A stretch of 64,000 nucleotides of DNA from Gemmatimonadota bacterium. GTDB taxonomy: Bacteria; Gemmatimonadota; Gemmatimonadetes; Palauibacterales; Palauibacteraceae. Below the pieces are notes generated by a model, which was not told the origin of the DNA, did not search any database, and saw only the letters and a program-made list of their open reading frames with translations. A program made the translations under genes and the position numbers. The DNA lies in assembly GCA_965116475.1 (NCBI GenBank), contig OZ220691.1, forward strand, positions 3,520,001-3,584,000, written 5' to 3'. Shown one piece after another: positions 47,542 to 64,000 of the stretch; positions within the stretch are counted from its first letter, which is position 1, and every line of letters starts with the position of its first letter.

Positions 47542-48374
47542 CGAACCTGAAGATCCTGTTCACGGTCGTGGCGACGCTGGCGGTGTTCACCTTCGTGGCG
47601 AACGTGATCCCGCAGGTGCAGTCGGCGGTCCCCCGGGAGATCGTGCTCAGCGCGGACATGCCGCCGGAGGAGCTGGCGGCGATCGGCGAGGAGATCTACG
47701 CGGGGGCGGGCGGCTGCACGGCGTGCCACGGCCTCGGCACGCGCGCGCCGGACCTCCTCGGCGTGGTGGGCGGCGTGTGCGCGACGCGCGTCCCCGGGCA
47801 GAACTGCAAGGACTATCTGTGGGAGTCTCTGGTCAACCCGACGGCCTACATCGTGGAGGGCTTCGACCCCATCATGATCGACCAGAGCATCGTTTCGTCG
47901 CAGGCCGAGTTGTGGACGCTCGTCGCCTTCCTGCAATCGCAGGGCGGCGAGATCACGGTGAACGCGGACGACTTCGCCGCGGCGCTGGCGGCCGACGACG
48001 CGGCCGCGTCCGCTCCGCCGCCTCCCGTCGTGACCGACCCGAACCAGGTCGACGCGGTCGCGCTGATCACGGCACAGGGCTGCCTCGCCTGCCACGCGCT
48101 CGGCGGGGAGGGCGGCATGGTCGCGCCCCCCTTCGAGGAGTTGCGGGGACAGGATCCCGCCTTCGTCCGCGAGGGGATCGTGGATCCGATGGCGACGATC
48201 AACGAGGAATACTCGACCTTTGCCGGGACGATGCCGACGATCTTCGGCGATCTCATGTCTCCGGTCGAACTCGATGTGCTGGTGGACTTCTTCGTGGGCG
48301 GCTCGGGAGCCGGGGAGGAGGCTCCCGGCGACGCGGCGGAAGTCCCGCCCGACAGCGCGGGAGGTAGCCGATGA
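47538..48374 (+). CDS. Membrane-anchored diheme cytochrome c
   Basis: CTACH and CLACH; N-terminal TM helix. Confidence 0.88.
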   Translation: MTNLKILFTVVATLAVFTFVANVIPQVQSAVPREIVLSADMPPEELAAIGEEIYAGAGGCTACHGLGTRAPDLLGVVGGVCATRVPGQNCKDYLWESLVNPTAYIVEGFDPIMIDQSIVSSQAELWTLVAFLQSQGGEITVNADDFAAALAADDAAASAPPPPVVTDPNQVDAVALITAQGCLACHALGGEGGMVAPPFEELRGQDPAFVREGIVDPMATINEEYSTFAGTMPTIFGDLMSPVELDVLVDFFVGGSGAGEEAPGDAAEVPPDSAGGSR

Positions 48375-49168
48375 AGCGTTACCTGTCCCATCCGTTCTGG
48401 CAGGGCGCGATCGTCATCGTCGTGTCCTACATAGCGTTCGAGTGGGTGATCGGCTACGTGCTCCCGGTGATCGGCGTGGCGAGCGCTCCCGTGCCGAGTT
48501 CGGTCATCCTCCAGTACATGCTCACCGTCCTGGTGGGCATCGTCCTCTACATGAGCGCGGACGAGGCGCGCTGGAAGCGCTTCAAGAAGCCGATCCACGA
48601 GACGATGGTGCAGCCGGACCGCCGGACCGTGCGGGGCATCCTCATGGTGGCGATCCCGGCGATCATCGGCTGGCTCGCCTACGAGCGGGTGAAACCCAGC
48701 TACGCCGCGCCGGCCACGTTGCGCGCCGTCCACCCCGCGCCGCCGAACCAGCTCACCTTCCGCGGCGAGACGATCGAACTCACGGGGCTCGAGAACCCGC
48801 TGCACGAGGAAGGCTCCCTGGAGGAGCACCTGGCGGTCGGGAAGCGGATCTACGTGCGCAACTGCGTGCCCTGCCACGGCGACCTGCTCGACGGACAGGG
48901 CCACTACGCGCCGGCCTTCAACCCGGTGCCCGCCGACTTCACGAGTTCGGGCAACCTGCCCCAGCTCACGGAGAGCTACGTGTTCTGGCGCATCGTCAAG
49001 GGCGGCCCCGGCCTCCCGCGCGAGGGCACGCCGTGGGATTCGGCCATGCCGGCGTGGGAGACGATCCTCGAGCAGGACGAAATCTGGGCGACGATCCTCT
49101 ATCTCTACGACCAGACGGGGTTCACGCCGCGCACCTGGGAGGAAGAAGGGGAAGGGGGGCACGAATGA
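48371..49168 (+). CDS. Membrane-bound monoheme cytochrome c
   Basis: Three TM helices; CVPCHG; SAMPAW axial Met. Confidence 0.88.
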   Translation: MKRYLSHPFWQGAIVIVVSYIAFEWVIGYVLPVIGVASAPVPSSVILQYMLTVLVGIVLYMSADEARWKRFKKPIHETMVQPDRRTVRGILMVAIPAIIGWLAYERVKPSYAAPATLRAVHPAPPNQLTFRGETIELTGLENPLHEEGSLEEHLAVGKRIYVRNCVPCHGDLLDGQGHYAPAFNPVPADFTSSGNLPQLTESYVFWRIVKGGPGLPREGTPWDSAMPAWETILEQDEIWATILYLYDQTGFTPRTWEEEGEGGHE

Positions 49169-50745
49169 GCGCGCCCCGGCGCCGGGCCCGCGGGATGTTC
49201 GCGCTTGGCGGACTCGTCGTCATCGCCGCCGCCGCCGCGCCCCCGCTATCGGGACAGGAAGACGCGGCCGCCGCGGGCAAGGTCGTGTACGACCGCTGGT
49301 GCGCGGAGTGTCACGGCGAAACCGGGCAGGGAGATGGCTCCGCCGCCGCCTCGATGCTGCCCCGGCCCCGGGACTTCACGCAGGCGCTCTACCAGATCCG
49401 GACGACCGGCAGCGGACAGCTCCCGACGGACGCGGACATCCGGTTCGCGATCGAGAACGGGCTCCCCGGGACGACGATGCCGGGCTGGCCCAATCTCACG
49501 GACCAGGAGATCGACGACCTCATCGTCTATCTGAAGAGCTTTTCGCGGTTCTTCGGCCAGGGTCCGGCCCCCGAACCGCTCGACTTCGGGTCCGATCCCG
49601 GCGGCGGTCCCGCGGCGATCGAGGCGGGGGCGGCCGCCTACCTCACGATGCTGTGCGAGGAGTGCCACGGCCTGTCCGGGCGGGGAGACGGGACCTCGGC
49701 GCCGACGCTGGAGGATTGGCGGGGCCTCCCCATTCGCGCGGCCGACCTCACGGAGGCGTGGGTGCTCAACGGCGGCAGCAGCGTCGAGGACATGCACACC
49801 CGGATGTTGACCGGACTGGACGGCACGCCGATGCCGTCGGCGATCGACGCCATGAACTCGGGCGTCGTCTCGCCCGATGAAGTCTGGCAGTTGGCGCACT
49901 ATCTCGCCTCCCTCGGGCCGCGCGAGATACCGCCGCTGCGCGAGGTGATCCGCGTGGGCCGCGCCGAAGGCGGGCTCCCCGCCGACGGCGGAGAGGAGGC
50001 GTGGGCGGGCGTCGAGGCCTTCTACTTCCCGATGTCGGGCCAGGTCGTCCAGGTGCCCCGCAACTTCGCGCCGACGGTCGACGGGCTCTGGGTGCAGGGG
50101 CTGCACGACGGGAACGACATGGCGCTGCGCGTCCAGTGGAACGACCCATCGAACAGCCCGGACCCGAACTGGGACGAGTGGCAGGACAAGATCACGACCG
50201 CGCTCGACCTCGATGGCGCGGAACCGATCGCCCTCGACAGCGCCGGCGCACCGACCGTGCGACCCCCGGATGCGGTGCTCCTCCAGTTCCCCTTCGAGCT
50301 GCCGGAGGGCACCGACCGGCCGTACTTCCTGATGGGGGACGCCCGCGAACCGGTCTACGTCTGGACGTGGGATTCGGAGACCGGTCTCGGCGCGGGCCGC
50401 GGCCGCGGCCTGGACTCCGTCGAACCGCTCGCGGAGGACCCGGTAACGGGGGAAGCGACGTGGGAGGAGGGGCGCTGGACGCTCTATCTGCGCCGTCCGA
50501 TCGAGCTCGAAAGCGACGGTCTCGACTTCGTCGAGGGCACGCCGACGCCCATCGCTTTCCAGGCGTGGGACGGGTCCAGCGCCGAGGTCGGGAAGCGCAG
50601 CTCCGTGAGCACGTGGTACTACATTCTTCTCGAACCTCCGGCATCCAGCACGGTCGTCGTTACGCCCCTGCTGGCCATGCTCTTGACGGGGGCCTTCGGT
50701 CTCGTTCTCGTGCGCCGGGCCCAGGACCGCCGGAGGGATGGCTAA
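49165..50745 (+). CDS. Diheme cytochrome c fused to EB_dh/DOMON-like heme-b domain
   Basis: CAECH, CEECH; LRVQWNDP, DAVLLQFP, PYFLMGD, AFQAWDG..E.GKRS; C-terminal TM helix. Confidence 0.82.
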   Translation: MSAPRRRARGMFALGGLVVIAAAAAPPLSGQEDAAAAGKVVYDRWCAECHGETGQGDGSAAASMLPRPRDFTQALYQIRTTGSGQLPTDADIRFAIENGLPGTTMPGWPNLTDQEIDDLIVYLKSFSRFFGQGPAPEPLDFGSDPGGGPAAIEAGAAAYLTMLCEECHGLSGRGDGTSAPTLEDWRGLPIRAADLTEAWVLNGGSSVEDMHTRMLTGLDGTPMPSAIDAMNSGVVSPDEVWQLAHYLASLGPREIPPLREVIRVGRAEGGLPADGGEEAWAGVEAFYFPMSGQVVQVPRNFAPTVDGLWVQGLHDGNDMALRVQWNDPSNSPDPNWDEWQDKITTALDLDGAEPIALDSAGAPTVRPPDAVLLQFPFELPEGTDRPYFLMGDAREPVYVWTWDSETGLGAGRGRGLDSVEPLAEDPVTGEATWEEGRWTLYLRRPIELESDGLDFVEGTPTPIAFQAWDGSSAEVGKRSSVSTWYYILLEPPASSTVVVTPLLAMLLTGAFGLVLVRRAQDRRRDG

Positions 50746-50775
50746 AGCAACGGTGAAGCAACGGTGAAGCAACGG
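50745..50775 (+). repeat. 11-bp tandem repeat AAGCAACGGTG x~2.8
   Basis: Directly visible right after the stop codon. Confidence 0.85.
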
Positions 50776-50829
50776 GTAAGGGCTCTCAACAGCCGATAGC
50801 GCAACAGCTTCTTGTACGGAGGTAAGTCA

Positions 50830-51690
50830 ATGCGATCGCATTTCTGGAACCGCTCGGCCGCCCTGCTGGCCGTCGCGGCGATGGCCGCCTGTGGCGGCGG
50901 CGGCGGATCGTCCGAAGGTGCCGCGGACGACGCGGGCGAGGCGGCCCCGGCCGCGGCGGCGGTGGATCCGTCCACGGTGGGGACGATCTCGGGCATGGCC
51001 AACTTCGGAGGGATGGTCCCGACGATGGAGGCCATCGACATGTCGGCCGAGGCGGATTGCGCCGCCGGCTACGGCGCGGACGGGCCCATGGCCCAGAGCG
51101 TCCTCGTGTCCGAAGGCGGCCTCGCCAACGTGTTCGTCTACCTGAGCGAAGGCGTCTCCGGCGCGCCGGCCGCGTCCGGCGCCGCGGCGCTCGACCAGGT
51201 GAACTGCCGCTACACGCCGCACGTGCTCGGCGTGCAGAGCGGTCAGGACATCGAGATCTCGAACAGCGACAATCTGCTCCACAACATCAACGCCACGCCG
51301 ACCGAGAACCGCGGCTTCAACATCAGCCAGCCGCGGGCGGGGATCACGAGCACGCAGCGCTTCCAGGTGGCGGAGGTGATGGTGCCGGTGCGCTGCGACG
51401 TGCACGGCTGGATGCAGGCGTACATCGGTGTCGTCGACCACCCGTACTTCGCGGTGACGGGCGCCGACGGGAGGTTCTCGATCGCCGACGTTCCCGCCGG
51501 TGACTACACGCTGACGGCGTGGCACGAGGAGTTCGGCACGATGACGACGAACGTGACCGTCATGGCGGGCGAGATGGCCGTGGCCACCTTCGACTACAAC
51601 GCCGAGATGATGGGCGCCGATGTCCCGCTGGGCGAGGCGCTCGTCCTCGGGCACGGTACGAACCGCATCCGGGTGGAGCGCACCCAGTAA
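50830..51690 (+). CDS. Lipoprotein with cupredoxin-like and carboxypeptidase-regulatory-like domains
   Basis: Lipobox MAAC; LDQVNCRYTPHV, LHNIN, CDVHGWM, VPAGDYTLTAWHE. Confidence 0.78.
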   Translation: MRSHFWNRSAALLAVAAMAACGGGGGSSEGAADDAGEAAPAAAAVDPSTVGTISGMANFGGMVPTMEAIDMSAEADCAAGYGADGPMAQSVLVSEGGLANVFVYLSEGVSGAPAASGAAALDQVNCRYTPHVLGVQSGQDIEISNSDNLLHNINATPTENRGFNISQPRAGITSTQRFQVAEVMVPVRCDVHGWMQAYIGVVDHPYFAVTGADGRFSIADVPAGDYTLTAWHEEFGTMTTNVTVMAGEMAVATFDYNAEMMGADVPLGEALVLGHGTNRIRVERTQ

Positions 51691-51790
51691 CTCCGGGGGC
51701 GGGACCCGGCGGCCCGAACGGCCGTCCGGTCCCGCTCGCGTTGCCGTTCATCCGAAGGGCTCATCTGGCTCATCTGGAAGGAGATCGCTC

Positions 51791-52462
51791 GTGGATTGGG
51801 CGCTGCCCCCGAACTATTCGACATTCGGCGTCGTGATCGACCAGCTGTTCTGGATCATCCTCGTCATCACCGGCATCGCGTTCCTCCTCGTGGAGGGCGG
51901 GATCGTCTGGTTCTGCGTCAAGTACCGGGGACGCGAAGGGGCGAGAGCGCACTACACGCACGGATCGAACCGGCTGGAGATCATCTGGACGGTGATCCCC
52001 GCGATCATCATCGCGATCCTCGGCGCCTATTCGGCGGTCGTGTGGAACGACATCAAGGGAAGCTCCAACCGTCCTGCCGACGCCCTCGAATTCCTCGTCG
52101 TCGGCAAGCAGTTCGAGTGGAACATCACCTACCCCGGAGTCGATGAGACGCTGGGGACGGGCGACGACTTCACGGTCCGCAACCAGTTCCATTTCCCGGT
52201 GAACGAGGACATCACGATCCTGCTCGAGTCCGAGGACGTGATCCACTCCTTCTTCATCCCCGAACTCCGCGTGAAGCAGGACGCGGTGCCGGGCATGACC
52301 ATCCCGGTGTGGTTCGACGCGACCCAGACCGGGAACTTCGAGATCGCGTGCGCCGAGCTTTGTGGCCTGGGCCACTACTACATGATGGCGAGCGTGACCG
52401 TGCACAGCGCGGCGGACTTCGACGCCTGGCAGGCCAGCCAGGCGCCGGCCGCCGCCCAGTGA
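51791..52462 (+). CDS. coxB: Cytochrome c oxidase subunit II
   Basis: LEIIWTVIP, DVIHSF, CuA motif CAELCGLGHYYM. Confidence 0.94.
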   Translation: MDWALPPNYSTFGVVIDQLFWIILVITGIAFLLVEGGIVWFCVKYRGREGARAHYTHGSNRLEIIWTVIPAIIIAILGAYSAVVWNDIKGSSNRPADALEFLVVGKQFEWNITYPGVDETLGTGDDFTVRNQFHFPVNEDITILLESEDVIHSFFIPELRVKQDAVPGMTIPVWFDATQTGNFEIACAELCGLGHYYMMASVTVHSAADFDAWQASQAPAAAQ

Positions 52463-52477
52463 TCGAGAAAGGCTGAT

Positions 52478-54244
52478 ATGGCGACGATCGTAGCGGAGGC
52501 GACCGGGCAGGCGATCCTGCACGAGGAGCACGAGCAGTCCTTCCTGCGCAAGTACATCTTCTCGACCGACCACAAGGTCATCGCGATCCAGTTCCTGATC
52601 TACACGCTGTTCTTCCTCATGATCGGCGGACTGCTGGCGATGCTCATGAGGTACCAGATCGCGTGGCCGGCGCGGGGCGAGCTGCCGCTGGGCGGGATCT
52701 TCCCCGAGAGCATGGTCGCGAGCGGGTACATCCTGCCGGAGTTCTACAATGCGCTCGTCACGATGCACGGCTCGGTGATGGTCTTCCTCGCCATCATGCC
52801 GATGCTCGTGGGCGTGTGGGCGAACTACCTCATCCCGCTCCAGCTGGGCACGCACGACATGGCGTTCCCGCGGCTCAACATGCTCTCCTTCTGGGCCATG
52901 GTGCCCGCGGGCATCCTCACGCTGGCGAGTTTCTTCGTCGTCGGAGGCGCGGCGGGGGCCGGCTGGACGCTGTACGCGCCGCTGAGCGCCCGCCCCGACC
53001 TGTCCGGCGTCGGACTCGGGCAGATCCTGTGGCTGGCCGCGCTCGTCTTCATCGGGCTCTCATCGATTCTCGGATCGGTGAACTACATCACCACGACGAT
53101 CAACATGCGCGCCCCGGGCATGACCTGGATGCGCATGCCGCTCACCATCTGGTCGCTGTTCATCACGGCCATCCTCGCGCTGCTTGCGATGCCCGTCCTG
53201 TCGGCGGCCGGGATCATGCTCATCTTCGACCAGACCATCGGGACGAGCTTCTTCCTCCCGGAGGGCGGGGGACAGCCGCTCCTCTGGCAGCACCTGTTCT
53301 GGTTCTTCGGCCACCCGGAGGTCTACATCCTCATCCTCCCGGCCATGGGCTTCACCTCCGAGATCCTCTCCGTGGGTTCGCGGAAGCCGGTGTTCGGCTA
53401 CAAGGCGATGGTCCTGGCGCTCGTCTCGATCGCCTTCCTCGGGTTCATCGTGTGGGGTCACCACATGTTCCAGAGCGGGATGAACCCGATGCTGGGACTC
53501 ACGTTCACGGTCTCGACGCTCTTCATCGCCGTGCCCTCGGCGATCAAGACGTTCAACTGGATGGGCACGATGTGGCGCGGGAACCTCCAGCTCCACTCGG
53601 CGATGCTGTTCGCGATCGGGTTCGTGGCGATGTTCGCGATCGGAGGCCTGTCGGGCGTCTTCATGGCCTCGACGCCGGTCGACATCTACATCCACGACAC
53701 GTACTTCATCGTGGCGCACATCCACTACGTGCTCTTCGGCGGAAGCCTCTTCGCGCTCTTCGGGGCGATCTACTTCTGGTATCCGAAGATGTTCGGACGG
53801 ATGATGAACGAGACGCTGGGCAAGATCCATTTCTGGCTCACGTTCGTCTTCTTCAACCTGGTCTTCTTCCCGATGCACGGCGTGGGGATGGTGGGGATGA
53901 TGCGGCGCATCTACGACTCCACCGGCTACGCGCACCTGCAGGGGATCGAGGACACGAACGCGCTCATCACGTGGTCGGCGTTCGGGCTCTTCGCATCCGG
54001 CTTCCTGTTCGCGTTCAACTTCTTCTGGAGCCTGAAGAAGGGGAGGAAGGCCGAGGCGAATCCGTGGAACGCGACGACGCTGGAGTGGCAGACGCCCTCG
54101 CCGCCGAAGCACGGCAACTGGGAGGAAGTCCCGGTCGTCTACCACGGTCCGCACGAGTACAGCCACCCGGATGTGGAGGACAAGGACTGGCTGGCGCAGA
54201 ACGAACGGCCGGATGTCGTGAGCCCGGCCGCCGGCAGCCACTAA
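52478..54244 (+). CDS. coxA: Cytochrome c oxidase subunit I (A1 type)
   Basis: STDHK, WFFGHPEVY, WGHHMF, HDTYFIVAHIHYV. Confidence 0.96.
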   Translation: MATIVAEATGQAILHEEHEQSFLRKYIFSTDHKVIAIQFLIYTLFFLMIGGLLAMLMRYQIAWPARGELPLGGIFPESMVASGYILPEFYNALVTMHGSVMVFLAIMPMLVGVWANYLIPLQLGTHDMAFPRLNMLSFWAMVPAGILTLASFFVVGGAAGAGWTLYAPLSARPDLSGVGLGQILWLAALVFIGLSSILGSVNYITTTINMRAPGMTWMRMPLTIWSLFITAILALLAMPVLSAAGIMLIFDQTIGTSFFLPEGGGQPLLWQHLFWFFGHPEVYILILPAMGFTSEILSVGSRKPVFGYKAMVLALVSIAFLGFIVWGHHMFQSGMNPMLGLTFTVSTLFIAVPSAIKTFNWMGTMWRGNLQLHSAMLFAIGFVAMFAIGGLSGVFMASTPVDIYIHDTYFIVAHIHYVLFGGSLFALFGAIYFWYPKMFGRMMNETLGKIHFWLTFVFFNLVFFPMHGVGMVGMMRRIYDSTGYAHLQGIEDTNALITWSAFGLFASGFLFAFNFFWSLKKGRKAEANPWNATTLEWQTPSPPKHGNWEEVPVVYHGPHEYSHPDVEDKDWLAQNERPDVVSPAAGSH

Positions 54245-54268
54245 ATCGCATGGAAGGGAACTGACGAG

Positions 54269-54883
54269 ATGGCACACGCCGCGACCGCAGGCCGGGTCCC
54301 CGAGAGAGGGCTCGATGTCTACACCCAGAAGGTGGGCATGTGGGTGTTTCTGTGCTCGGAGGTGATGTTCTTCGCGGGCCTCATCGGCTCGTACGTGGTG
54401 CTCCGTTTCGGGGCATCCGATACCTGGGCGGAGCCGAACGAGGTACTGGCGGTCCCCATCACCGCGTTCAACACCTTCCTCCTCATCTGCAGTTCGGTGA
54501 CGATGGTGAAGGCCTTCGCGGCCGCGCAGATGGGAGACCAGAAGGGGATCAAGCTCTGGCTCCTGTCGACGACGATCCTCGGAGCCACCTTCCTGGGCGT
54601 GCAGGTGTTCGAGTACACCGAACTCGTGCTGCACCAGTCGTGGCAGGGGAGCCACGGGTTCACGCCGGCGTCCGGGCTGTACGGGGCCACCTTCTACACG
54701 ATGACGGGCTTCCACGGCTTCCACGTCCTCCTCGGTGTGATCTGCCTCGCCTGGGCCACGATCCGCGCCTGGCGGGGCCACTGGGGCGCGGACAACACCC
54801 ACGGGATCGAGGTGCTCGGCCTCTACTGGCACTTCGTCGACCTCGTGTGGATCATCCTGTTCACGATCGTCTACCTCATCTAG
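54269..54883 (+). CDS. coxC: Cytochrome c oxidase subunit III
   Basis: FLCSEVMFF, TGFHGFHV, YWHFVDLVW. Confidence 0.94.
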   Translation: MAHAATAGRVPERGLDVYTQKVGMWVFLCSEVMFFAGLIGSYVVLRFGASDTWAEPNEVLAVPITAFNTFLLICSSVTMVKAFAAAQMGDQKGIKLWLLSTTILGATFLGVQVFEYTELVLHQSWQGSHGFTPASGLYGATFYTMTGFHGFHVLLGVICLAWATIRAWRGHWGADNTHGIEVLGLYWHFVDLVWIILFTIVYLI

Positions 54884-54926
54884 CCAGACACCTGGGGCTG
54901 TTGGCCGAGAGATACGGAGCGAACGA

Positions 54927-55232
54927 ATGAGTGAAGCCGGAGGACACGCGGCGGGCGCCGCGGACGATCACGGGCACGAGCACCCGAAGTACATGCTCAT
55001 CTGGCTGTACCTGGCCATCCTCACGGCCCTCGAGGTGGGGGTGGTCTACCTCGATATTCCGAAGTGGATGATCGTTACGTCGCTGCTCATCATGGCGGGG
55101 TGGAAGGCGCTGCTCGTCGCGCTCTACTACATGCACCTGAAGTTCGAACCCAACCGTTTGCGGCTGGTGGCGCTGGCGCCGCTTCCGGCCGTGGCCATCA
55201 TGATCATCGCGATCATGATGGAGTACGTGTAG
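54927..55232 (+). CDS. Cytochrome c oxidase subunit IV
   Basis: LTALEV, KALLVALYYMHLKFE. Confidence 0.88.
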   Translation: MSEAGGHAAGAADDHGHEHPKYMLIWLYLAILTALEVGVVYLDIPKWMIVTSLLIMAGWKALLVALYYMHLKFEPNRLRLVALAPLPAVAIMIIAIMMEYV

Positions 55233-55245
55233 GCGCGACCCCGTC

Positions 55246-56169
55246 GTGGAGGCCGGAACGCTGCTCAAGACGCGCGGAGTCCCGCGCGCGGGGATCTCGA
55301 GACGGGTGCGCTCGCTGCGGGCGACGCTTCCCGCATACGTCGAACTGACGAAGCCACGCATTACGGCGCTCGTCGTCGCGAGCGCGGCCGCCGGCTTCCT
55401 TCTTGGCGCGGCGAGTTTCGACTTCGCCCTCTTCGCGCAGGCCATGGCCGGCGTGGCGCTCGTCGCCTCCGGGACGAGCGCGATGAACCAGGTGCTGGAA
55501 CGGGATGTGGACGCGCTCATGGGGCGCACGCGCGCGCGGCCGCTGCCGGCCGGCCGGATCGCGACGCCGCCGGCCGCGGTCGTCTCCGGGGTTCTGGCCG
55601 CGGCGGGGATCGTCTGGCTGTGGATCGCGGTCAATCCGATCACGGCGGGACTCGCGCTCGCCACGTTCGTCTCCTACGACTTCGTCTACACGCCGCTCAA
55701 GCGCGTCCACTCCCTCTCCACCATCGTGGGCGCAGTGCCCGGGGCGCTGCCGATTCTCGGGGGCTGGACCGCCGCCACCGGGCAGTTCGGTCCCGGCGGA
55801 TGGGCGCTGTTCGCGATCCTCTTCGTCTGGCAACTGCCACATTTTCTCGCCCTCGCGTGGCTGCTCCGCGACGACTACCAGGCCGCGGGGCTTCGCATGC
55901 TCTCCGTCGGCGACTTCGAGGGCCGCCGGACGCGTCACCAGGCGCTGCTCTACGCGCTCACTTTGATCCCGGTGAGTCTCCTCCCGAGCGTTCTCGGCCT
56001 CACGGGCGTCGTCTACTTCGCGGTCGCGCTCGGACTCGGGGGGTGCTTCCTGTGGACCGCGCTCCGGTTCGCCCGCTCCGCGACGCCGGCGCACGCCCGG
56101 GGTTTGTTCCGGGCCTCGATCCTGTATCTTCCACTGCTGATGGCCGTGCTCGTCCTCGACAAGCTGTAG
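55246..56169 (+). CDS. cyoE: Protoheme IX farnesyltransferase (heme o synthase)
   Basis: LTKPRI, ERDVDALMGRTRARPLP, WQLPHFLAL. Confidence 0.93.
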   Translation: MEAGTLLKTRGVPRAGISRRVRSLRATLPAYVELTKPRITALVVASAAAGFLLGAASFDFALFAQAMAGVALVASGTSAMNQVLERDVDALMGRTRARPLPAGRIATPPAAVVSGVLAAAGIVWLWIAVNPITAGLALATFVSYDFVYTPLKRVHSLSTIVGAVPGALPILGGWTAATGQFGPGGWALFAILFVWQLPHFLALAWLLRDDYQAAGLRMLSVGDFEGRRTRHQALLYALTLIPVSLLPSVLGLTGVVYFAVALGLGGCFLWTALRFARSATPAHARGLFRASILYLPLLMAVLVLDKL

Positions 56170-56462: not shown

Positions 56463-57418
56463 CGCTGAGGCGGAGGATCCGGGCCGGGCTCGTCGGAGGG
56501 CTGCTGGGCGGTTTCGTCCTCGCGGTGCTCTTCTACTTCTACGATCTCGGGCAGGGGACGCCGCTCCAGACCCCCGCCTTCCTCTGGGGGGCCATCATCA
56601 GCCGTGCCGAGGTCGAAGCGTCCGCCGGCGTCATCGTGGGGTTCACGTTCATCCACTTCACGGCCTGGGCCGGGCTCGGGATGCTGGCCGCGGCGCTCGT
56701 TCAGTGGGCGGGCCTCCCGCGCAACGTGTTCATCGGCGCGCTTTACGGGCTCTTCGTGTGTTCCCTCGTGTTCTACGTCGGACTCATCCGGGCGCCCGCC
56801 GGACTCGTGATCTCCGCGCCGGGATGGCCGGCGGTCTTCTTCGGGAACGCGCTCGCCGGGGTCGTGATGTTCACTCACATGCACTGGGTGAGTTCGGAGC
56901 CCGGCATCGTGGGGATGATGAACTTCCTCCAGACGCACAGGGTCACGCGCCACGGCATCTACGCGGGGCTCCTCGGCGCCCTCGTCGTCGCGCTCTGGTT
57001 CCTCATCATCGACACCATGCTCCGGCAGCCGCTCTATACGCCGGCAGCGCTGGCGACCGTCCTCTTCCGCGGTGCCCCCACGCCGGCCGCGGTCGAGATC
57101 TCCCTCGCGCCCGTCCTCGGATACACGCTCGCCCACTTCGCCTTCTTCGTGCTGTTCGGCGTCGCGGTGTCCGGCCTCGCGCGACAGGTGTCCAGGTTCC
57201 CGCCCCTGGCCCTCGGCATCATCGTGCTGTTCGTCATCTTCGAGGTCTTCTTCATCGCCATGGTCGCGATGCTGGGCGGCTGGATCCTCGAGGAACTCGC
57301 CTGGTGGTCGATTCTGGTCGGGAACGTTTTCGCGGCGCTCGTCATGGGCGGATACCTCTGGAAGGTCTACCCGGAGTTCGCGGAGAGTCTCACGGCGGAG
57401 AGCCTTTGGGCGGACTGA
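56456..57418 (+). CDS. Integral membrane protein with internal duplication
   Basis: Two similar ~155-aa halves, each with D...P..TP and a conserved HF. Confidence 0.75.
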   Translation: MLTLRRRIRAGLVGGLLGGFVLAVLFYFYDLGQGTPLQTPAFLWGAIISRAEVEASAGVIVGFTFIHFTAWAGLGMLAAALVQWAGLPRNVFIGALYGLFVCSLVFYVGLIRAPAGLVISAPGWPAVFFGNALAGVVMFTHMHWVSSEPGIVGMMNFLQTHRVTRHGIYAGLLGALVVALWFLIIDTMLRQPLYTPAALATVLFRGAPTPAAVEISLAPVLGYTLAHFAFFVLFGVAVSGLARQVSRFPPLALGIIVLFVIFEVFFIAMVAMLGGWILEELAWWSILVGNVFAALVMGGYLWKVYPEFAESLTAESLWAD

Positions 57419-58044
57419 ACCCGCCCCCGGTCCTCGTCGCCACGCGCAGCACCCACAAACTCCGCGAAATCCGCGGCCTCCTCGCCGACCTTCCCGTGCG
57501 GTTGCTCGGCCCGGAGGATCTCGGCCTGCCTGAACACGAGGAAGAGGACGACCTCGAACCCTTCGACACCTTCGCGCGCAACGCTTTGTCCAAGGCGAAG
57601 TACTTTCACCGCCGGTCCGGCCTCCCCGTGCTCGCGGACGATTCCGGGCTCTGCGTGGACGCGCTCGGGGGCGGCCCGGGCGTGCGGACGCGGCGCTTCG
57701 CTCCCCCCGACCGGGTCGCGCGCTGGGGACGGGACGAAGCGAACAACCGCTGGCTGCTCGAGCGGCTGGAAGACGTGGACGCGGGACGCCGCGGGGCGCA
57801 CTATCGTTGCGCGGTTGCGCTCACGGACGATCTGCGGCACGAAGTCGTGGAGGGCGTCGTGCGCGGCCGGATCGCGCGCCGACCCAGCGGCTCGGGAGGC
57901 TTCGGCTACGACCCGCTCTTCGTGCCGGAGGGCCACGACCGCCCCTACGCCGAACTGCCGGACGCGGTGAAGACGGCGACGAGTCACCGTGCGAAGGCGA
58001 TTCGGCAGGCGAGGGGATGGATCGAAAGGGAAGTCCTGCGGTGA
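57406..58044 (+). CDS. rdgB: Non-canonical purine NTP pyrophosphatase (RdgB/HAM1)
   Basis: VATRSTHKLRE, LADDSGL, GFGYDPLF, SHR; GGAG-N5-TTG start. Confidence 0.93.
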   Translation: MGGLNPPPVLVATRSTHKLREIRGLLADLPVRLLGPEDLGLPEHEEEDDLEPFDTFARNALSKAKYFHRRSGLPVLADDSGLCVDALGGGPGVRTRRFAPPDRVARWGRDEANNRWLLERLEDVDAGRRGAHYRCAVALTDDLRHEVVEGVVRGRIARRPSGSGGFGYDPLFVPEGHDRPYAELPDAVKTATSHRAKAIRQARGWIEREVLR

Positions 58045-58061
58045 CGAAGTCCTGCGGTGAC
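58030..58061 (+). repeat. 16-bp perfect tandem duplication GAAGTCCTGCGGTGAC x2
   Basis: Directly visible; duplicates the rdgB stop region. Confidence 0.9.
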
Positions 58062-58076
58062 CTTGCGCACGTTCAA

Positions 58077-58150
58077 TCGGGGCGGCCGGATTTGAACCGG
58101 CGACCCCCTGCTCCCAAAGCAGGTGCGCTACCGGACTGCGCCACGCCCCG
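58077..58150 (-). tRNA. tRNA-Pro (UGG), CCA not encoded
   Basis: CGGGGCGTGGCGCAGTCCGGTAGCGCACCTGCTTTGGGAGCAGGGGGTCGCCGGTTCAAATCCGGCCGCCCCGA. Confidence 0.96.
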
Positions 58151-58207
58151 AAGTCCCGAAAGATGGACCGACCGGGGGGCCGAAGCCACCCCGGCCTCGG
58201 AGAGGAC

Positions 58208-61200
58208 ATGAAGTTGCGCGCGGCCTTCGCGCGGGGGGGCGGGGCGGGCAAGCTGTTCGCCATGATGGGGCTGGCGGCGCTTGTGCTCTTCGTCATCGGG
58301 ATCCTGCGTCCCCTGCGCAGCGCCTTCGCGCTCTCGGGCCTCGCCGCGGGCGATTTCTACCAGGTGTACTTCATCAGCGCGGCGGTCGTGGTCGTCGCCC
58401 CCTTCTACAACTTCCTCTCGGACCGCATCTCGTGGCGCCGCCTCATCCCCCTGACGGCGGCGTTCTTCGCCCTCAGCATGGTTGCCTTCCGCCTTCTCTA
58501 CCAGCCGGGGGAGGCCTGGTTCGGGCTGGTCTTCTACGGATGGTACGACGTGCTGGCGGCCTCGCTCGTCACGCACTTCTACATCGCGACGCAGGTCTTC
58601 TACAACGCCCGCGATGCGAAACGCGCCTATCCCATCGTCATCGCCTCGGGTTCGGCCGGGGCCACGCTCGGAGCGCTCCTCACGACCGTCTTCACCTCGG
58701 GCGGCGGCCCGTCCGAGAACCTGCTGCTGGTGGCCGGGGCCGCGCTCCTCGTGCTGGCGGGCGGCCTCGCCCTCGTCTGGTCGCGGGAGCCTCCGGAGCC
58801 GCCGTCGGAGTACGCGCACGCGGAAGATCCCGAACTCGAGCGCAGCGACCTGCGGCGCATGGCCGCGAATCCGCAGGTGCGGCTCATCGCGGCCACCGTG
58901 CTCCTGACGATCGTCGTCAAGCAGTTCATCGACTACCAGTACAACACGCTCACGCGCGAGGTCTTCACCGATCTGGGCGCGATCGCCGGCTTCCTTGCCT
59001 TCGTCGACGTCCTCACGCAGTGGCTGCCGATCGTCGTCCTCCTCGCGCTGCGTCCCGTTCTGCGCCGCTGGGGGGCCGCGGTGGCCGTCATCATCTTCCC
59101 CGTGGCCGTGATCCTCGCGACCGGGGCGCTCGCCGCCGCCGTGTGGCTGTCCACCGCCGCGCTCGCCGTCGCCGTCGGGGCCCGGACGACGGAGAAGACG
59201 TTCCGCTATTCGGCCGAGCGCACGGGCCGCGAGATCCTCTATGTCCCTGTCCCGGAGGACATCAAGCTCAAGGCGAAATCCTACATCGACGTCGCGGTGG
59301 AGAAGGGGCTGGGGAAGGCGCTTTCGGGGGTGCTCATCGCGATCCCTTCGCTGGCGCTCGCGGGCCTTTCGATCATGGGCCGGCTCATCATCCTCGGGGT
59401 TGTTGGCGTGGCCCTGGCGGGCGTCCTGCTGTTCGCCTTCCTCAGGGTGCGAAAGTCGTACGTCGCGAGTCTCGCCCAGTCCTTCGAGGGGCGCTTCGCG
59501 AGCCTGCGCGGAACGTTCGTGTCGATGGCGGACGTGGGCGCGCTGGCTCTGGCGCGGGAGGCGCTCGAGGATGAGCGGCCGCTGAAGGTCGCCTTCGCCT
59601 TCGACGTGCTGCGCGGCGCCACGCCGGAGGATATCGAGGCGCTCTCGCCCGAACTGTACCGCCTCCTCGAGCACGAGAACCCCGGCCTTCGGGCACGGGC
59701 GCTGCGATCGCTGTCGCGCGCCCCCGGCCTCTCGAACGAGGCCGCCGTGCGGGCCCGGCTCGAGGATCCGGATTCGGCCGTGCGGCGCGCCGCGGCCCGG
59801 CTCCTCGCGCTGAAGGCGGCGCCGCGCGCCCGCGATGTCCTCATCCCGCTCCTCGACTCGGACTCGACGAACGCCCGCTCGGCCGCGCTCGACTGCCTGT
59901 TCAGCGACTTCGGCGCGGCGCGGGCCGAACGCATCGCGACCCCGCGCTTCGAACACCTGCTGCGGGAACACGAGCGGGGGACGCTCGAAGGCCCCGCCGC
60001 CCGCGAATTGGCGATGGCGGCGGGGCTCGTCCCCGGTCATCCGGCGGTGGAGCGCGTCCTCCTCGAACTCATCTCGGATCCGCGCGAGGAGGTCGCGGCG
60101 GCGGCCGCGCGCAGCGCCTCCCGGCTTCCGCAGCCGGAGCTCGTGCAGGCGGCCATCGCGTCCCTGGCGCTCCCACGGACCCGGAGTGCGGCTCGCGACG
60201 GCCTCGCGGGACGGGGAGAGGAAATCGTCAAGCCGCTCCTTGCGGCGCTTTCCGACCCGGCCGGCGACCCCTGGGTACGCCGGGGCGTGGCGAGCGTGCT
60301 CGGCGAGATCGCGACGCCCGCGACGATCGATGCCCTCATCACGTCCTACCTGCTGCCTGAGACCGAACAGGCCCTCGACGACCAGGCCCTCGTGTCGCTC
60401 CACCGGCTGCGCACCAGTCACGACCACCTCACGTTCCCGGAGGGGAGGGTGCTCGAGGCCGTGGAGCGCGAGGTCCAGGCGTCCCGGCGCTACGCCCGCG
60501 CGGCCTCCGCGCTCGAGGGTGTGCCGGCGTCGATGCCCGGAGCGCTGCTCCTCCGGGCGCTCGAAGAGGCGAGGAGAGACCGGCGGGCGAGTGTCTTCCG
60601 GTGGCTTGGGCTCGTGTACCCCGAACAGCCGATGCGGCGCAGCTATCTGGCCCTTGAGAGCGGACAGCCGCGGCGCCGCGCGAATGCGCTGGAGTGGATC
60701 GAGACGACCGTCGGGCACCGCACCTTCCTGGACCTCAGGCCGGTGCTCGCGGAGGAGATCCCCGAGGGGCCCTCGCGCGAGGCGGGGGATGTGCTGCGGG
60801 AGCTGTGGGACGATGAGGACGCCTGGATCGCGAGGTGCGCGCTCTGGACATCCTTCGAAACCGACCCCGGTGCGATGGGAGAAACCCTCCACGGTTTCAC
60901 GCCGGCGGAACCGGCGCTGGCGCTGGTCGCCCGCCGGCTGGCGCGACGGGTGGCGACCTCCGCGCGGGAGCCGGGAGACGAACGAGATGAGGAAGAGATG
61001 GAACTGATCGAAAAAGTGTTCCGCCTGCAGAACGTGGATCTCCTTTCGGGCGTGGAGAGCCGGCAACTCGCGCTCCTCGCCTCCATCGCGAGGGAGGTCG
61101 AGGTACGGCCGGACGCCATCTTCATCCGCAGGGGGGAGCCGACGGACGCCCTTTACCTCGTGATCCACGGCGACGTTTCGCTCGAGGGGGAGGGGGAGGG

Positions 61201-61411
61201 ATCGATCTCCATCACGGACGGAGAGGCGTTCGGAACGTGGGCGCTGATCGACGAACACCCGAGCGTCGTCGAGGCGCGCGCCGTCGCGCCCACCCGCGTG
61301 CTGCGCATCACCCGGGAGGATTTTCGAGACCTCCTCATCGACCATCCGGAACTCGGCCTCGACCTGCTCCGGGGGCTCGCGAGTCGCGTTCGCGGCCTGG
61401 CGATGACATGA
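58208..61411 (+). CDS. Npt/NTT (ATP:ADP antiporter)-family transporter fused to HEAT repeats and a C-terminal cNMP-binding domain
   Basis: ~12 TM helices with AKRAYP, FIDYQY, REILYVPVP..KLKAKSYID; HEAT-like repeats; GEAFGTWAL..HPSVVEA cNMP fold. Confidence 0.82.
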   Translation: MKLRAAFARGGGAGKLFAMMGLAALVLFVIGILRPLRSAFALSGLAAGDFYQVYFISAAVVVVAPFYNFLSDRISWRRLIPLTAAFFALSMVAFRLLYQPGEAWFGLVFYGWYDVLAASLVTHFYIATQVFYNARDAKRAYPIVIASGSAGATLGALLTTVFTSGGGPSENLLLVAGAALLVLAGGLALVWSREPPEPPSEYAHAEDPELERSDLRRMAANPQVRLIAATVLLTIVVKQFIDYQYNTLTREVFTDLGAIAGFLAFVDVLTQWLPIVVLLALRPVLRRWGAAVAVIIFPVAVILATGALAAAVWLSTAALAVAVGARTTEKTFRYSAERTGREILYVPVPEDIKLKAKSYIDVAVEKGLGKALSGVLIAIPSLALAGLSIMGRLIILGVVGVALAGVLLFAFLRVRKSYVASLAQSFEGRFASLRGTFVSMADVGALALAREALEDERPLKVAFAFDVLRGATPEDIEALSPELYRLLEHENPGLRARALRSLSRAPGLSNEAAVRARLEDPDSAVRRAAARLLALKAAPRARDVLIPLLDSDSTNARSAALDCLFSDFGAARAERIATPRFEHLLREHERGTLEGPAARELAMAAGLVPGHPAVERVLLELISDPREEVAAAAARSASRLPQPELVQAAIASLALPRTRSAARDGLAGRGEEIVKPLLAALSDPAGDPWVRRGVASVLGEIATPATIDALITSYLLPETEQALDDQALVSLHRLRTSHDHLTFPEGRVLEAVEREVQASRRYARAASALEGVPASMPGALLLRALEEARRDRRASVFRWLGLVYPEQPMRRSYLALESGQPRRRANALEWIETTVGHRTFLDLRPVLAEEIPEGPSREAGDVLRELWDDEDAWIARCALWTSFETDPGAMGETLHGFTPAEPALALVARRLARRVATSAREPGDERDEEEMELIEKVFRLQNVDLLSGVESRQLALLASIAREVEVRPDAIFIRRGEPTDALYLVIHGDVSLEGEGEGSISITDGEAFGTWALIDEHPSVVEARAVAPTRVLRITREDFRDLLIDHPELGLDLLRGLASRVRGLAMT

Positions 61412-61417
61412 TCCGAC

Positions 61418-61903
61418 ATGGATGAGATCAAGCCGGACGGCGGCACCGTGATGGTCGTCGACGACGAGGACATGGTCGTGGACGCCATTCAGGGATTCCT
61501 GGAGCTGGAAACCGACCATCTCGTGCTCCCCTTCACATCCGTGCGCGACGCGCTCGCCCACCTCGAGGAGGAACCGGTCCACGCGATCGTGGCCGACCTG
61601 ATGATGCCCGAACTCGATGGGGTGCAGTTCCTGACGCGAGCCCGCCGGCTGAGGCCGGAGGCGACCCGGATCCTGCTCACGGGCTACGCTGACAAGGAAA
61701 ACGCCATCCTCGGGATCAACGAGGCCGGACTCTACCAGTACCTCGAGAAGCCGTGGAACAACGACGCGCTGGCCTTCGCCATCCGCAACGGCGTCGAGCG
61801 AAGCCGCCTCTTTCGCGCGCTGACCGAACGCATCGCCGAACTCGAGGCGGCCAACGACGAACTCGCCGGGCTCCGGCAGCGCTGGATACAGGCTTTTCTG
61901 TGA
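61418..61903 (+). CDS. Response regulator (receiver plus coiled coil)
   Basis: VVDDE, ADLMMPELDG, LLTGY, EKPW. Confidence 0.92.
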   Translation: MDEIKPDGGTVMVVDDEDMVVDAIQGFLELETDHLVLPFTSVRDALAHLEEEPVHAIVADLMMPELDGVQFLTRARRLRPEATRILLTGYADKENAILGINEAGLYQYLEKPWNNDALAFAIRNGVERSRLFRALTERIAELEAANDELAGLRQRWIQAFL

Positions 61904-62697
61904 GCGACCCGCGACTCGAGCCGACAGCCCGGGAGATCACGCAGGCCCGACTGGCGACGCTCGGCATGCTGGTCGCGGGGATCGCCCACGAACTCAACAC
62001 CCCGCTGGGCGCGCTGAACAGCAACCACCACGTCATCGAGCGCGCGCTCCTCAAGCTGGGGGAGATCCTCGAGGACGAGGTCGTCACGCCGGACGAACTC
62101 GACGAGGTCCGGAGGGTCGTGCGGGCCACGGAATCGGTGCTGCGAACCAATGGCATCGCGGTGGAACGCATGGTGAATCTCGTGCGGAACCTGCGGAACT
62201 TCGGCCGGCCCACGACCTCCGAGCCTCGCCCCGTGGACCTGCACGAGGGGATCGAGGGCACGCTGGCCCTGCTCGGACACGAGCTGAGGGAGATCGAGGT
62301 CGTCCGCGACTTCGGGGACCTGCCGCCGGTCGTGTGCCATCCGAACCGCATCAACCAGGTGTTCATGAACCTCGTGCACAACGCGGCCCAGGCCATGCAC
62401 GACGGTGGCGTACTCACGATCCGGACGCGCACGGAAGGGGACCACGCGCATGTCCGCGTCGCGGACACGGGCCGGGGCATCCCGCACGACGTCATCGATC
62501 AGATCTTCGAGCCCGGCTTCACCACCAAGGGCGAGCGGATCGGGATGGGGCTGGGTCTCGCGATCACACTCCAGATCGTGCACCAGCACGGAGGAGACAT
62601 CGCGGTGGAGAGCGAACCGGGACGCGGGACGACGTTCGACGTAGCCATCCCGCTCCGGCAGCCCATGGGTCCCGCACGGAAGGAGGCTTCGGCATGA
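61900..62697 (+). CDS. Histidine kinase lacking a sensor domain
   Basis: AGIAHELNTP, QVFMNLVHNA, DTGRGI, FTTK..GMGLGL. Confidence 0.92.
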   Translation: MSDPRLEPTAREITQARLATLGMLVAGIAHELNTPLGALNSNHHVIERALLKLGEILEDEVVTPDELDEVRRVVRATESVLRTNGIAVERMVNLVRNLRNFGRPTTSEPRPVDLHEGIEGTLALLGHELREIEVVRDFGDLPPVVCHPNRINQVFMNLVHNAAQAMHDGGVLTIRTRTEGDHAHVRVADTGRGIPHDVIDQIFEPGFTTKGERIGMGLGLAITLQIVHQHGGDIAVESEPGRGTTFDVAIPLRQPMGPARKEASA

Positions 62698-63692
62698 CGC
62701 GATGCGCCGATCCGTTACGCGCCCTTGTCCTCGTCGCGGCGCTGGCCGCAGTTGCGGCGCCGGCTCCCGCGGCGGCTCAGGACGCCAATTTTCTTCTCCC
62801 CATCGCCGAGATCGAACGGATCCTGCGCGAGGGCGAAATCCAGGTCCTCGACGTACACCCGTCCCGCGGTCTTCCCGGCGAGCGCACGTATCGCGTGACG
62901 CTGCAGTCCGGCGACCACGTGCTCCAGGTCAAGTACGCCCCGGCCGCCGAGGGGGCGGACGAGTTCAACAACCGGCCCCGCTACGAGCTCGCGGCCTACG
63001 ACGTCCAGTCCCTTTTCCTCGACGAACGGGAAATGGTCGTCCCTCCGACCGCGATCCGCGCGTTCCCGCTCGATGTGGTCCGGGCCACGGTCGCCGGGAC
63101 GGGAGACGCGGCCACTCCACCGGAGCCGACGTTCGACGAGTGGCCCATGACGCTCGTCGCGCTCCAGTACTGGATGTTCAACGTCGACCTTCCGGAGGAG
63201 CTGCCGGACGAAGACCGAATCGAGGAAGACGAGGCCTACGAGCGCCTGCTCGGGAACTTCAACCTGCTCACCTACATCATCCGCCACAGCGACTCGAACG
63301 AGGGGAACTTCGTGCAGTCGATGGACCCCGCCTGGCCGCGCGTGTTCAGCGTCGACAACGGCGTGGCGTTCGCCAGCGAGGAGAGCAACCGCGGCACGCG
63401 CTGGCGCAATCTCCAGCTCGACCGCTATCCGGCCTCCGCGATCGACCGGCTGCGCGGCCTCTCGGTCGAAGAGCTGCAGGCCCAACTCGGGGTCCTCGTC
63501 CAGCTCGAGCTGCGGGGCGGAAACTTCGTGGAGGTGGAGCCGACGGAGAACCTCGACCCCGGCCGCGGGGTCCGCCGCGACGGGGAGCGGATCCAGCTCG
63601 GTCTCACGGAGTCCGAGATCCGGGCCATGCACCGGCGCATCGTCCGCCTCCTCGAGCGGGTGGACGAAGGCCGCTACGAGTTGATCCCCTGA
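62694..63692 (+). CDS. Secreted protein with atypical kinase-like (FAM20/PI3-4K/HipA-like) motifs
   Basis: Signal peptide ending AAA-Q; VKY, RYELAAY, VPPT, HSDSNEGN, VDNGVAF. Confidence 0.62.
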   Translation: MTRCADPLRALVLVAALAAVAAPAPAAAQDANFLLPIAEIERILREGEIQVLDVHPSRGLPGERTYRVTLQSGDHVLQVKYAPAAEGADEFNNRPRYELAAYDVQSLFLDEREMVVPPTAIRAFPLDVVRATVAGTGDAATPPEPTFDEWPMTLVALQYWMFNVDLPEELPDEDRIEEDEAYERLLGNFNLLTYIIRHSDSNEGNFVQSMDPAWPRVFSVDNGVAFASEESNRGTRWRNLQLDRYPASAIDRLRGLSVEELQAQLGVLVQLELRGGNFVEVEPTENLDPGRGVRRDGERIQLGLTESEIRAMHRRIVRLLERVDEGRYELIP

Positions 63693-63706
63693 GGCGTCGG
63701 CGTTGG

Positions 63707-64000
63707 ATGTCCGGTCTGCTGGGCGTTGCCGTCGCCGGCGCGGGGGCGGGCTGGACCGGCTCCATGCCCGCTCCCGGCGACGCGACGCCGGCGGCCGGAC
63801 AGCCTCCGCGGCCGGGGCAGCCCGGCTGGCACGTCGCGGGGGAGTACGGACTCTACGTCGCGTTCGCCGACGCCGGCCTCGAAGTCCGCTGGCTGACGGA
63901 GAAGGAGGGGCCCGGCCTGGTCCGGGCGATCGTGGACGGACAGGTCGTCGATGAGCAGAGGACGGACCCGGGATACGCGCACACGGCTCGCCTGCGGGTA
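63707..64000 (+). CDS. Hypothetical protein, 3'-truncated by window edge
   Basis: Frame open from ATG 63707 to the end of the window with host-like codon usage. Confidence 0.5.
   Translation, partial: MSGLLGVAVAGAGAGWTGSMPAPGDATPAAGQPPRPGQPGWHVAGEYGLYVAFADAGLEVRWLTEKEGPGLVRAIVDGQVVDEQRTDPGYAHTARLRV

Follow-up and report, generated by a model that had tools for sequence, protein, structure and literature searches.

The window analysed here, a stretch of 64,000 nucleotides from a Gemmatimonadota bacterium (G000:C1:3520001-3584000), carries an operon on the + strand that runs from position 58208 to the window edge and whose last gene was completed from the genome. Five consecutive genes encode a nucleotide translocase (NTT)-like carrier with an extension of HEAT repeats plus a cNMP-fold domain (NTT-HEAT-cNBD), a receiver, a histidine kinase, a leader-bearing kinase-fold protein termed KIN-A, and a metallophosphatase, with intergenic gaps of +6, -4, -4 and +14 bases. 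The carrier probably exports ATP in exchange for ADP and inorganic phosphate (Pi) and thereby fuels phosphorylation in the cell envelope, a reading that is assigned a probability of about 60%. The closest relatives at the protein level belong to Ca. Palauibacter (Gemmatimonadota). The open reading frame positions given for the operon in an earlier note on this DNA (the original prediction) were all borne out, and its overall interpretation is partly supported.

In the proposed mechanism, kinase and phosphatase would act in the periplasm, and the carrier would move adenine nucleotides outward, cytoplasmic ATP against periplasmic ADP and Pi. The counter-substrates would be the ADP of the kinase and the Pi of the phosphatase, which NTT1 co-transports; a kinase-phosphatase cycle outside the membrane would produce exactly these two compounds and would amount to reversible envelope phosphorylation. 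The substrate would most likely be an envelope protein, a first guess made because the partner phosphatase is of the protein-tyrosine-phosphatase type; a glycan or a lipid would also be possible. According to the accessible part of PMC3306366, NTT1 exchanges ATP for ADP plus Pi one to one, and the exchange was read by luminescence once ADP was added to whole E. coli cells. We take this luminescence as ATP leaving the cell, so that an outward flow of ATP would need no new chemistry.

The carrier was originally described as an NTT-family transporter with HEAT and cNMP domains, which agrees with NTT1 as its best match by profile and by fold. Pfam matches comprise MFS_1 (E 1.4e-6), HEAT_2 (E 1.4e-20), cNMP_binding (E 4e-13) and, below the cut-off, TLC (E 4e-4); some relatives of the carrier exceed the TLC cut-off (P0143 with 32.8, L030 with 33.0). 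A profile of 37 membrane domains matched AtNTT1 (9j3j, E 1.7e-22) and CpNTT1 (9j3n, E 1.9e-20), with the next carrier at 0.0095. The structural model (predicted local distance difference test, pLDDT, 88.8) contains 12 long helices, and its three top Foldseek matches are NTT1 structures (E 1e-10 to 5e-10; next match 9.5e-8). By model and profile, the fold is that of a 12-helix MFS protein nearer to NTT1 than to other MFS carriers. Four charged residues of AtNTT1, K155, E245, E385 and K527, are named as crucial in the accessible part of PMC10654386. Their equivalents were taken from a HMMER alignment to 9j3j, using a numbering offset of 84 derived by hand. E245, E385 and K527 correspond to D114, D242 and K370 of the carrier, each kept in 35 of the 37 membrane domains; over the four positions, one residue is identical, two are conservative replacements and one, K155, is lost. 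The carrier resembles AtNTT1 and CpNTT1 (PDB 9j3j-9j3o) in the acidic residues at E245/E385 and the Lys at K527, but differs from them in its sequence (16-18% identity), in the Gln at the K155 site, in a 635-residue cytoplasmic tail and in the proposed outward flow of ATP.

The order of NTT domain, HEAT repeats and cNBD within one chain matches the NTT-HEAT-cNBD fusion class of Major, Embley and Williams 2017 (PMC5381601), which is common in free-living bacteria and uncharacterised. Cyclic AMP-tuned ATP uptake or cyanobacterial roles were proposed there, whereas the cAMP contacts are replaced in the present carrier; the main text of that article makes no mention of exported kinases, phosphatases or two-component partners. 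In one genome (G218), in which KIN-A was not found, a carrier of this subtype is truncated beside an integrase (rve) gene (L194:3953-6262).

KIN-A has no Pfam family. The kinase motifs noted in the original prediction (Lys of VKY, Glu of RYELAAY, D-x-N-x-x-N, DNG) are real. In an alignment of the query with 113 more distant relatives (114 sequences in all), the numbers that retain each residue are 111 for K80, 105 for E98, 113 for D200 (within H198-x-D200-x-N-x-x-N205), 110 for N205 and 112 for D221 (within D221-N-G). An AlphaFold2 model built from 96 sequences (pLDDT 94.5) was used for structure searches, which returned the kinase fold that had been anticipated. Foldseek placed Fam20C (E 1.4e-7), hydra Fam20 and PI4KII first. 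A fold search (VIA, 48,161 chains) listed hydra Fam20 (5xom; Z 17.2, root-mean-square deviation 3.6, 257 aligned), 4kqa (Z 16.4), 4pla (15.7), actin-fragmin kinase (11.7), CtkA (11.5) and CotH (11.0), the closest folds (Z 17.2, 16.4 and 15.7) being those of Fam20 kinases (Fam20C, hydra Fam20) and type II PI4-kinases. By its modelled fold KIN-A is an atypical kinase with all catalytic residues present, and kinase activity is predicted. As a single sequence it gave nothing significant against Pfam, NCBIfam and PDB; its profile returned only PI3K-family hints (E 0.14-0.5), and Pfam Fam20C (PF06702) matched neither KIN-A nor 89 distant members at E 0.01. Of these 89, 14 match PI3_PI4_kinase below the cut-off, and PF06702 is found on 22% of the members of a neighbouring Atlas cluster. 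The family is modest in size, with 477 representatives at 50% identity.

KIN-A and Fam20 have the DNG metal motif and, by prediction for KIN-A, a signal peptide in common. KIN-A differs from Fam20 in its sequence (12-19% identity), in a catalytic loop of the form H-x-D-x4-N, in a mature chain without cysteine and in being bacterial. Fam20 enzymes act on S-x-E proteins or on xylose, and lumenal kinases are supplied by an ATP/ADP exchanger of the endoplasmic reticulum, an arrangement that offers a functional analogy for the operon. The CotH spore-coat kinase, CtkA and HipA-like proteins, likewise atypical kinases from bacteria, belong to this fold group and are more distant (Z 10-11.5); to our knowledge, no NTT carrier serves any of them. 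Export, likewise part of the original prediction, is indicated by a predicted Sec signal peptide (residues 1-28, cleaved between AAA and QD) and by a hydrophobic leader, called by hydropathy and not by SignalP, in 199 of 212 full-length homologues (36 with a lipobox) versus 22 of 631 control segments. The KIN-A gene is tandemly duplicated in L044, L046 and L160, the phosphatase gene being non-adjacent in L044 and L160. In P0196, KIN-A is fused behind a beta-lactamase2-like domain, a fold class also seen beside the dikinase-linked NTT-HEAT genes described below.

The gene at the window edge, guessed originally to encode a phosphatase, does encode a calcineurin-like metallophosphoesterase (Pfam Metallophos, E 1e-11). 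In the PDB it is most similar to 2z72, a protein-tyrosine phosphatase of Shewanella (E 4e-38), and 48 of 50 homologues have a hydrophobic leader. All metal motifs (GDVHG, GDLFDRG, GNHE, HGG, GHT) are shared with this cold-active enzyme of the Shewanella-like PPP type (2z72, 1v73), from which the operon protein differs by an extra N-terminal region of ~110 residues and by being encoded beside, or fused to, a kinase. In L190:2132-4009 (+), L163 and L175, a protein encoded beside KIN-A joins a leader and a Shewanella-like phosphatase to a C-terminal domain that is kinase-like; in L190 and L163 its gene is convergent with that of a single-domain NTT.

The best fold match of KIN-A, hydra Fam20 5xom, which we take to be a Fam20B-type sugar kinase and whose companion entry 5xoo is titled 'with sugar', would suit a carrier that imports nucleotides, or a small molecule (de)phosphorylated by the exported enzymes, be it for salvage or for host ATP uptake in a sponge symbiont. 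Many of the Ca. Palauibacter relatives are sponge-associated, and all characterised NTTs import (PMC5381601). Import is nevertheless unlikely, as the exported kinase would still depend on an external phosphate donor, the pairing of a kinase with a phosphatase suits a switch better than a catabolic route, and the cluster is not limited to one host-associated genus but spans several Gemmatimonadota orders and other phyla.

Linkage of the genes was assessed in the best 80 of 194 confirmed KIN-A loci from GTDB and in 80 of 352 confirmed metagenome loci. An NTT membrane domain lies within 6 kb of KIN-A in 52 of the 80 GTDB loci, and in 46 of the 54 that offer at least 5.5 kb of upstream DNA, so that the linkage is conserved, as the original prediction required. 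The phosphatase is found in 48 of 72 GTDB loci with room downstream and all five genes in 39 of 80. Without the 21 closest loci, the proportions are 26/34 for the carrier and 27/51 for the phosphatase; in the metagenome loci they are 11/15 and 26/41. Carrier and kinase also remain adjacent where the order is rearranged, as in L030 (kinase, carrier) and L042 (kinase, carrier, phosphatase) and, with no relay between them, in L067 and L081. Kinase and phosphatase are fused in P0129, P0135 and P0272. In P0143 a single-domain NTT is joined to the kinase by a single additional hydrophobic segment, so that the kinase would come to lie outside; a search for longer forms gave just two fusions among 7993 scored candidates. 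Of ten genomes without a carrier near KIN-A, nine have one elsewhere, and the tenth is a 1.2-Mb assembly. A FastTree phylogeny, computed from 90 of 158 NTT domains after de-replication at 85%, shows kinases as neighbours in several distinct clades; its deep nodes are weak.

Evidence for ATP export also comes from the partners with which NTT carriers are found. Co-occurrence was counted in 251 Gemmatimonadota genomes and 114 genomes of a second phylum (that of G261, presumably KSB1); the genomes are related and partly incomplete, and the counts are not phylogenetically independent. Among Gemmatimonadota, KIN-A is present in 16 genomes and NTT-like genes in 132, and the carrier is adjacent to KIN-A in 16 of 16. 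Twenty other NTT loci revealed two further leader-bearing families with kinase-like motifs, KIN-B and KIN-C, each beside Omp85 and often with a different metallophosphoesterase nearby. All 19 Gemmatimonadota genomes with KIN-C are NTT-positive. In the second phylum, where 39 of 114 genomes have an NTT, KIN-C occurs in 32 genomes (30 NTT-positive, 23 with KIN-C within 6 kb of the NTT), and the gene order is Omp85, kinase, single NTT, NTT-HEAT, cNBD, receiver; KIN-A occurs in 18, all NTT-positive. The seven NTT-positive genomes of this phylum that lack KIN-A and KIN-C all encode a leader-bearing PEP-synthase-like dikinase, in six of them beside NTT-HEAT. Altogether, 13 genomes of the second phylum and 4 of the 251 from Gemmatimonadota encode the dikinase; every one of them is NTT-positive, and in three of the four Gemmatimonadota the two genes are adjacent. 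At least one such enzyme is encoded in 39 of 39 NTT-positive versus 2 of 75 NTT-negative genomes of the second phylum, a split that, the genomes being kin and not independent, is to be read as a pattern and not as a p-value. Fisher tests overstate significance for the same reason and carry no weight here.

The dikinase (970-980 aa) resembles PEP synthase and rifampin phosphotransferase (PPDK_N, E ~1e-25). A leader is present in 11 of the 11 sequences read and the His-carrier motif SH.QLLAR.LGIP in 10 of 11; an exported dikinase, as this predicted leader implies, is itself unusual. KIN-B is possibly an outer-membrane-linked kinase. Profile-profile comparison gave no match between KIN-A and KIN-B; KIN-A and KIN-C matched with a probability of 26% (E 7e-4) and with their catalytic motifs aligned. 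The differing neighbours of the carrier have in common a leader and a need for ATP. These shared properties, together with an output of ADP and Pi, favour ATP export, and the repeated occurrence of NTT carriers beside unrelated, leader-bearing users of ATP adds support.

Inherited synteny alone, joining a carrier-receiver-histidine kinase module and an independent kinase-phosphatase module, is very improbable as an explanation of the cluster. The two modules are separate in G256-G259 and, for KIN-A, mostly so in the second phylum, and the hut operon is also syntenic downstream in ~25 closer loci; however, an NTT is repeatedly found next to a leader-bearing enzyme despite changes in gene order, across different NTT clades, for different kinase families and for the unrelated dikinase, and also as a fusion.

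Several observations weigh against ATP export by the carrier. It falls under the curated TLC (PF03219) cut-off (19.8 vs 21 bits) and far below that of TIGR00769 (24.3 vs 387). K155 of AtNTT1 corresponds to Q52, in a position occupied by Q in 19, K in 9, R in 7 and Y in 2 of the 37 membrane domains; because changes of K155 cripple nucleotide binding in AtNTT1 (PMC3306366, accessible part), a Gln at this site counts against ATP binding, although Lys and Arg are common there within the carrier's own clade. The same carrier subtype lies beside a histidine kinase in G256-G259 (with a receiver in three) while KIN-A is encoded elsewhere, KIN-A is adjacent to the NTT in only 2 of 18 genomes of the second phylum, and one single-domain NTT clade has no kinase neighbour. 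An NTT was detected in 45 of 85 Gemmatimonadota genomes with KIN-B, which equals the base rate of 132/251, so that proteins of this kind may function in the absence of an NTT; of the 132 NTT-positive Gemmatimonadota, 63 lack KIN-A, KIN-B and KIN-C. The kinase folds of KIN-B and KIN-C are weakly indicated, by motifs and weak profile matches: the best PDB profile match of KIN-B is CtkA (E 0.054), its Atlas matches are leads (0.77-0.78), 29 members gave no match to Pfam, and KIN-C gave no meaningful match to PDB profiles. The P0143 fusion rests on one contig and may represent a lost stop. Finally, E. coli has some periplasmic ATP without any NTT: the accessible part of PMC7432876 gives ~24 uM/10^10 cells, by a route described as unknown, and the original statement that the periplasm normally lacks ATP was therefore too strong.

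The tail of the carrier does contain a cNMP-binding fold, as originally noted, with the canonical cyclic-nucleotide contacts replaced. In this domain, FGTWALIDEHPS aligns to FGELALLYNAPR of the regulatory subunit of PKA, and the cassette reads FG-T-WALIDEHP-S as opposed to FG-E-LAL...P-R. The cassette Glu (FGE) and Arg (PR) are the contacts for cAMP or cGMP. Among 55 relatives, Glu is replaced by Thr in 51 and Arg by Ser in 52, with no Glu or Arg among the residues listed, which argues against the suggested regulation of the carrier by cyclic nucleotides; Trp and Asp of the carrier cassette are conserved in their own right. Three cNMP domains of a second group retain the Arg and not the Glu. 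The domain is more likely a module for protein docking or for another ligand. Its most constant neighbour in both phyla examined is this receiver subfamily, which suggests phosphorelay control. Two-component signatures are present, namely the phospho-His in HisKA, the N-box and the receiver Asp/Thr/Lys: D60 and K111 of the receiver are kept in 55 of 55 relatives and T88 in 54 of 55. The histidine kinase combines HisKA (His30) and HATPase_c without a membrane or sensor segment; an N-terminal extension of ~200 aa is found in 10 of 52 relatives and is hydrophobic in the three read, and in L187 histidine kinase and receiver are fused. In the weakest step of the mechanism, the HEAT-cNBD tail would gate the carrier and limit the loss of ATP, with the histidine kinase and receiver, not cAMP, as the probable regulators.

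The constant company of NTT-HEAT, cNBD and the receiver subfamily in both phyla, even without an exported kinase nearby, would also be expected if the protein were mainly a sensor (transceptor) that binds, or transports slowly, a nucleotide or phosphorylated product of the envelope and signals through its tail to histidine kinase and receiver, the exported pair tuning the signal with ATP from elsewhere. The absence of an input domain from the operon histidine kinase, the Gln at the K155 position and the placement of some NTT-HEAT genes after a membrane Ser/Thr kinase point in the same direction. This has an outside chance of being correct, since related histidine kinases come with inputs of their own (PAS, GAF, membrane bundle), the cNBD-receiver pair is missing from most dikinase-linked NTT-HEAT loci, and both the ATP source of the exported enzymes and the split of 39/39 versus 2/75 genomes would be left unexplained.

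The cluster supplies both a candidate ATP exporter and its likely customers. According to the accessible part of PMC7432876, the route by which ATP passes the inner membrane to reach the periplasm is unknown; no function has been assigned to the NTT-HEAT family since 2017 (PMC5381601). A link between an NTT carrier and an exported kinase or phosphatase was not found described in open-licence PMC and bioRxiv literature, and the system is not covered in the accessible part of PMC9758233. Carrier class and phosphatase type are known, and the kinase family is without a model; the system is new, its function being proposed here, and the analysis adds the swap among unrelated users of ATP, including the dikinase, and the genome-level split. 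The odds are judged even for a wider claim, namely that the ATP exporters missing so far from the inner membrane of many diderms are NTT-HEAT proteins, which would feed exported phosphotransferases (a PEP-synthase-like dikinase and three or more kinase-like families) and phosphatases in a regulated, two-component-gated periplasmic network like that of the eukaryotic Fam20 secretory kinases. If the export reading is true, reversible phosphorylation driven by ATP would be established in the envelope of several bacterial phyla, free-living cells would be shown to run the carriers of energy parasites in reverse, and bacterial relatives would be added to the history of Fam20-type secretory kinases.

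Table 1 Operon genes (window positions) and loci of the other leader-bearing families found with NTT carriers
Feature	Location	Strand	Description
NTT-HEAT-cNBD protein, 1067 aa	58208..61411	+	12-helix NTT-like carrier (~residues 12-432), HEAT repeats, C-terminal cNMP-fold domain
Receiver with short C-terminal extension	61418..61903	+	Pfam Response_reg, E 6e-20
Soluble histidine kinase, HisKA + HATPase_c	61900..62697	+	Pfam; GTG start overlaps receiver stop
KIN-A, Fam20/PI4KII-like atypical kinase (predicted), 332 aa	62694..63692	+	AF2 fold, motifs; no Pfam model
Shewanella-like PPP metallophosphatase, 5' part	63707..64000 in window	+	433 aa, ends G000:C1:3585008; start codon uncertain
Dikinase loci	L316:9558-12503; L317, L319, L332-L335, L342-L345	+ (L316)	Beside NTT-HEAT and two beta-lactamase2-like proteins
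KIN-B, kinase-like domain (GGGQQT, DWDRH, DRDQAF) fused to Omp85 barrel	L206:9353-13048; L213-L242	+ (L206)	Beside lipoprotein metallophosphoesterase
KIN-C, lipoprotein, kinase-like (KFDP, NH.D....N, IDF)	L210:4162-5874; L196; L300-L312	- (L210)	Nearly always directly after Omp85 gene

Other NTT arrangements were seen in the genomes. A shorter NTT-HEAT subtype (~740-780 aa) follows a gene for a membrane-anchored Hanks-type Ser/Thr kinase in L206, L210 and L288-L290. In the genome of the window, a divergent pair of single-domain NTT-like genes lies beside TIM-barrel (AP_endonuc_2) genes (G000:C1:2080979-2083872; L193:6982-9869), and back-to-back single-domain NTT pairs likewise occur in L203, L209 and L212, with no kinase nearby. 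Genes for PhoU-domain and Na/Pi-cotransporter proteins are located inside the NTT cluster at L303:16224-17928 and L304:11991-13692 (checked with Pfam in L303; same-sized genes in L304), and the gene after that for the cNBD encodes a leader-bearing, phytase-like beta-propeller. Together these genes hint at a link to phosphate.

In the window itself, searches for a sigma-70 promoter and a + strand terminator gave no match. Contigs of one sponge metatranscriptome span all 30 bins of 57000-64000; they derive mostly from relatives at <99% identity and, without a silent control stretch, are not evidence of transcription. Directly upstream of the operon and divergent from it lies a tRNA-Pro(TGG) gene (58076-58151, -), a spot taken by unrelated genes in some relatives (L004, L008, L017). 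Further upstream, a cytochrome c / cytochrome c oxidase cluster (48220-56169, +; subunits II, I, III, IV and heme O synthase) was recognised from translations. Beyond the window, the genes converging on the phosphatase (L001:9060-14929, -) are syntenic in ~25 loci and, judged by their motifs, are presumably histidine-utilisation-like (imidazolonepropionase, urocanase, ammonia-lyase).

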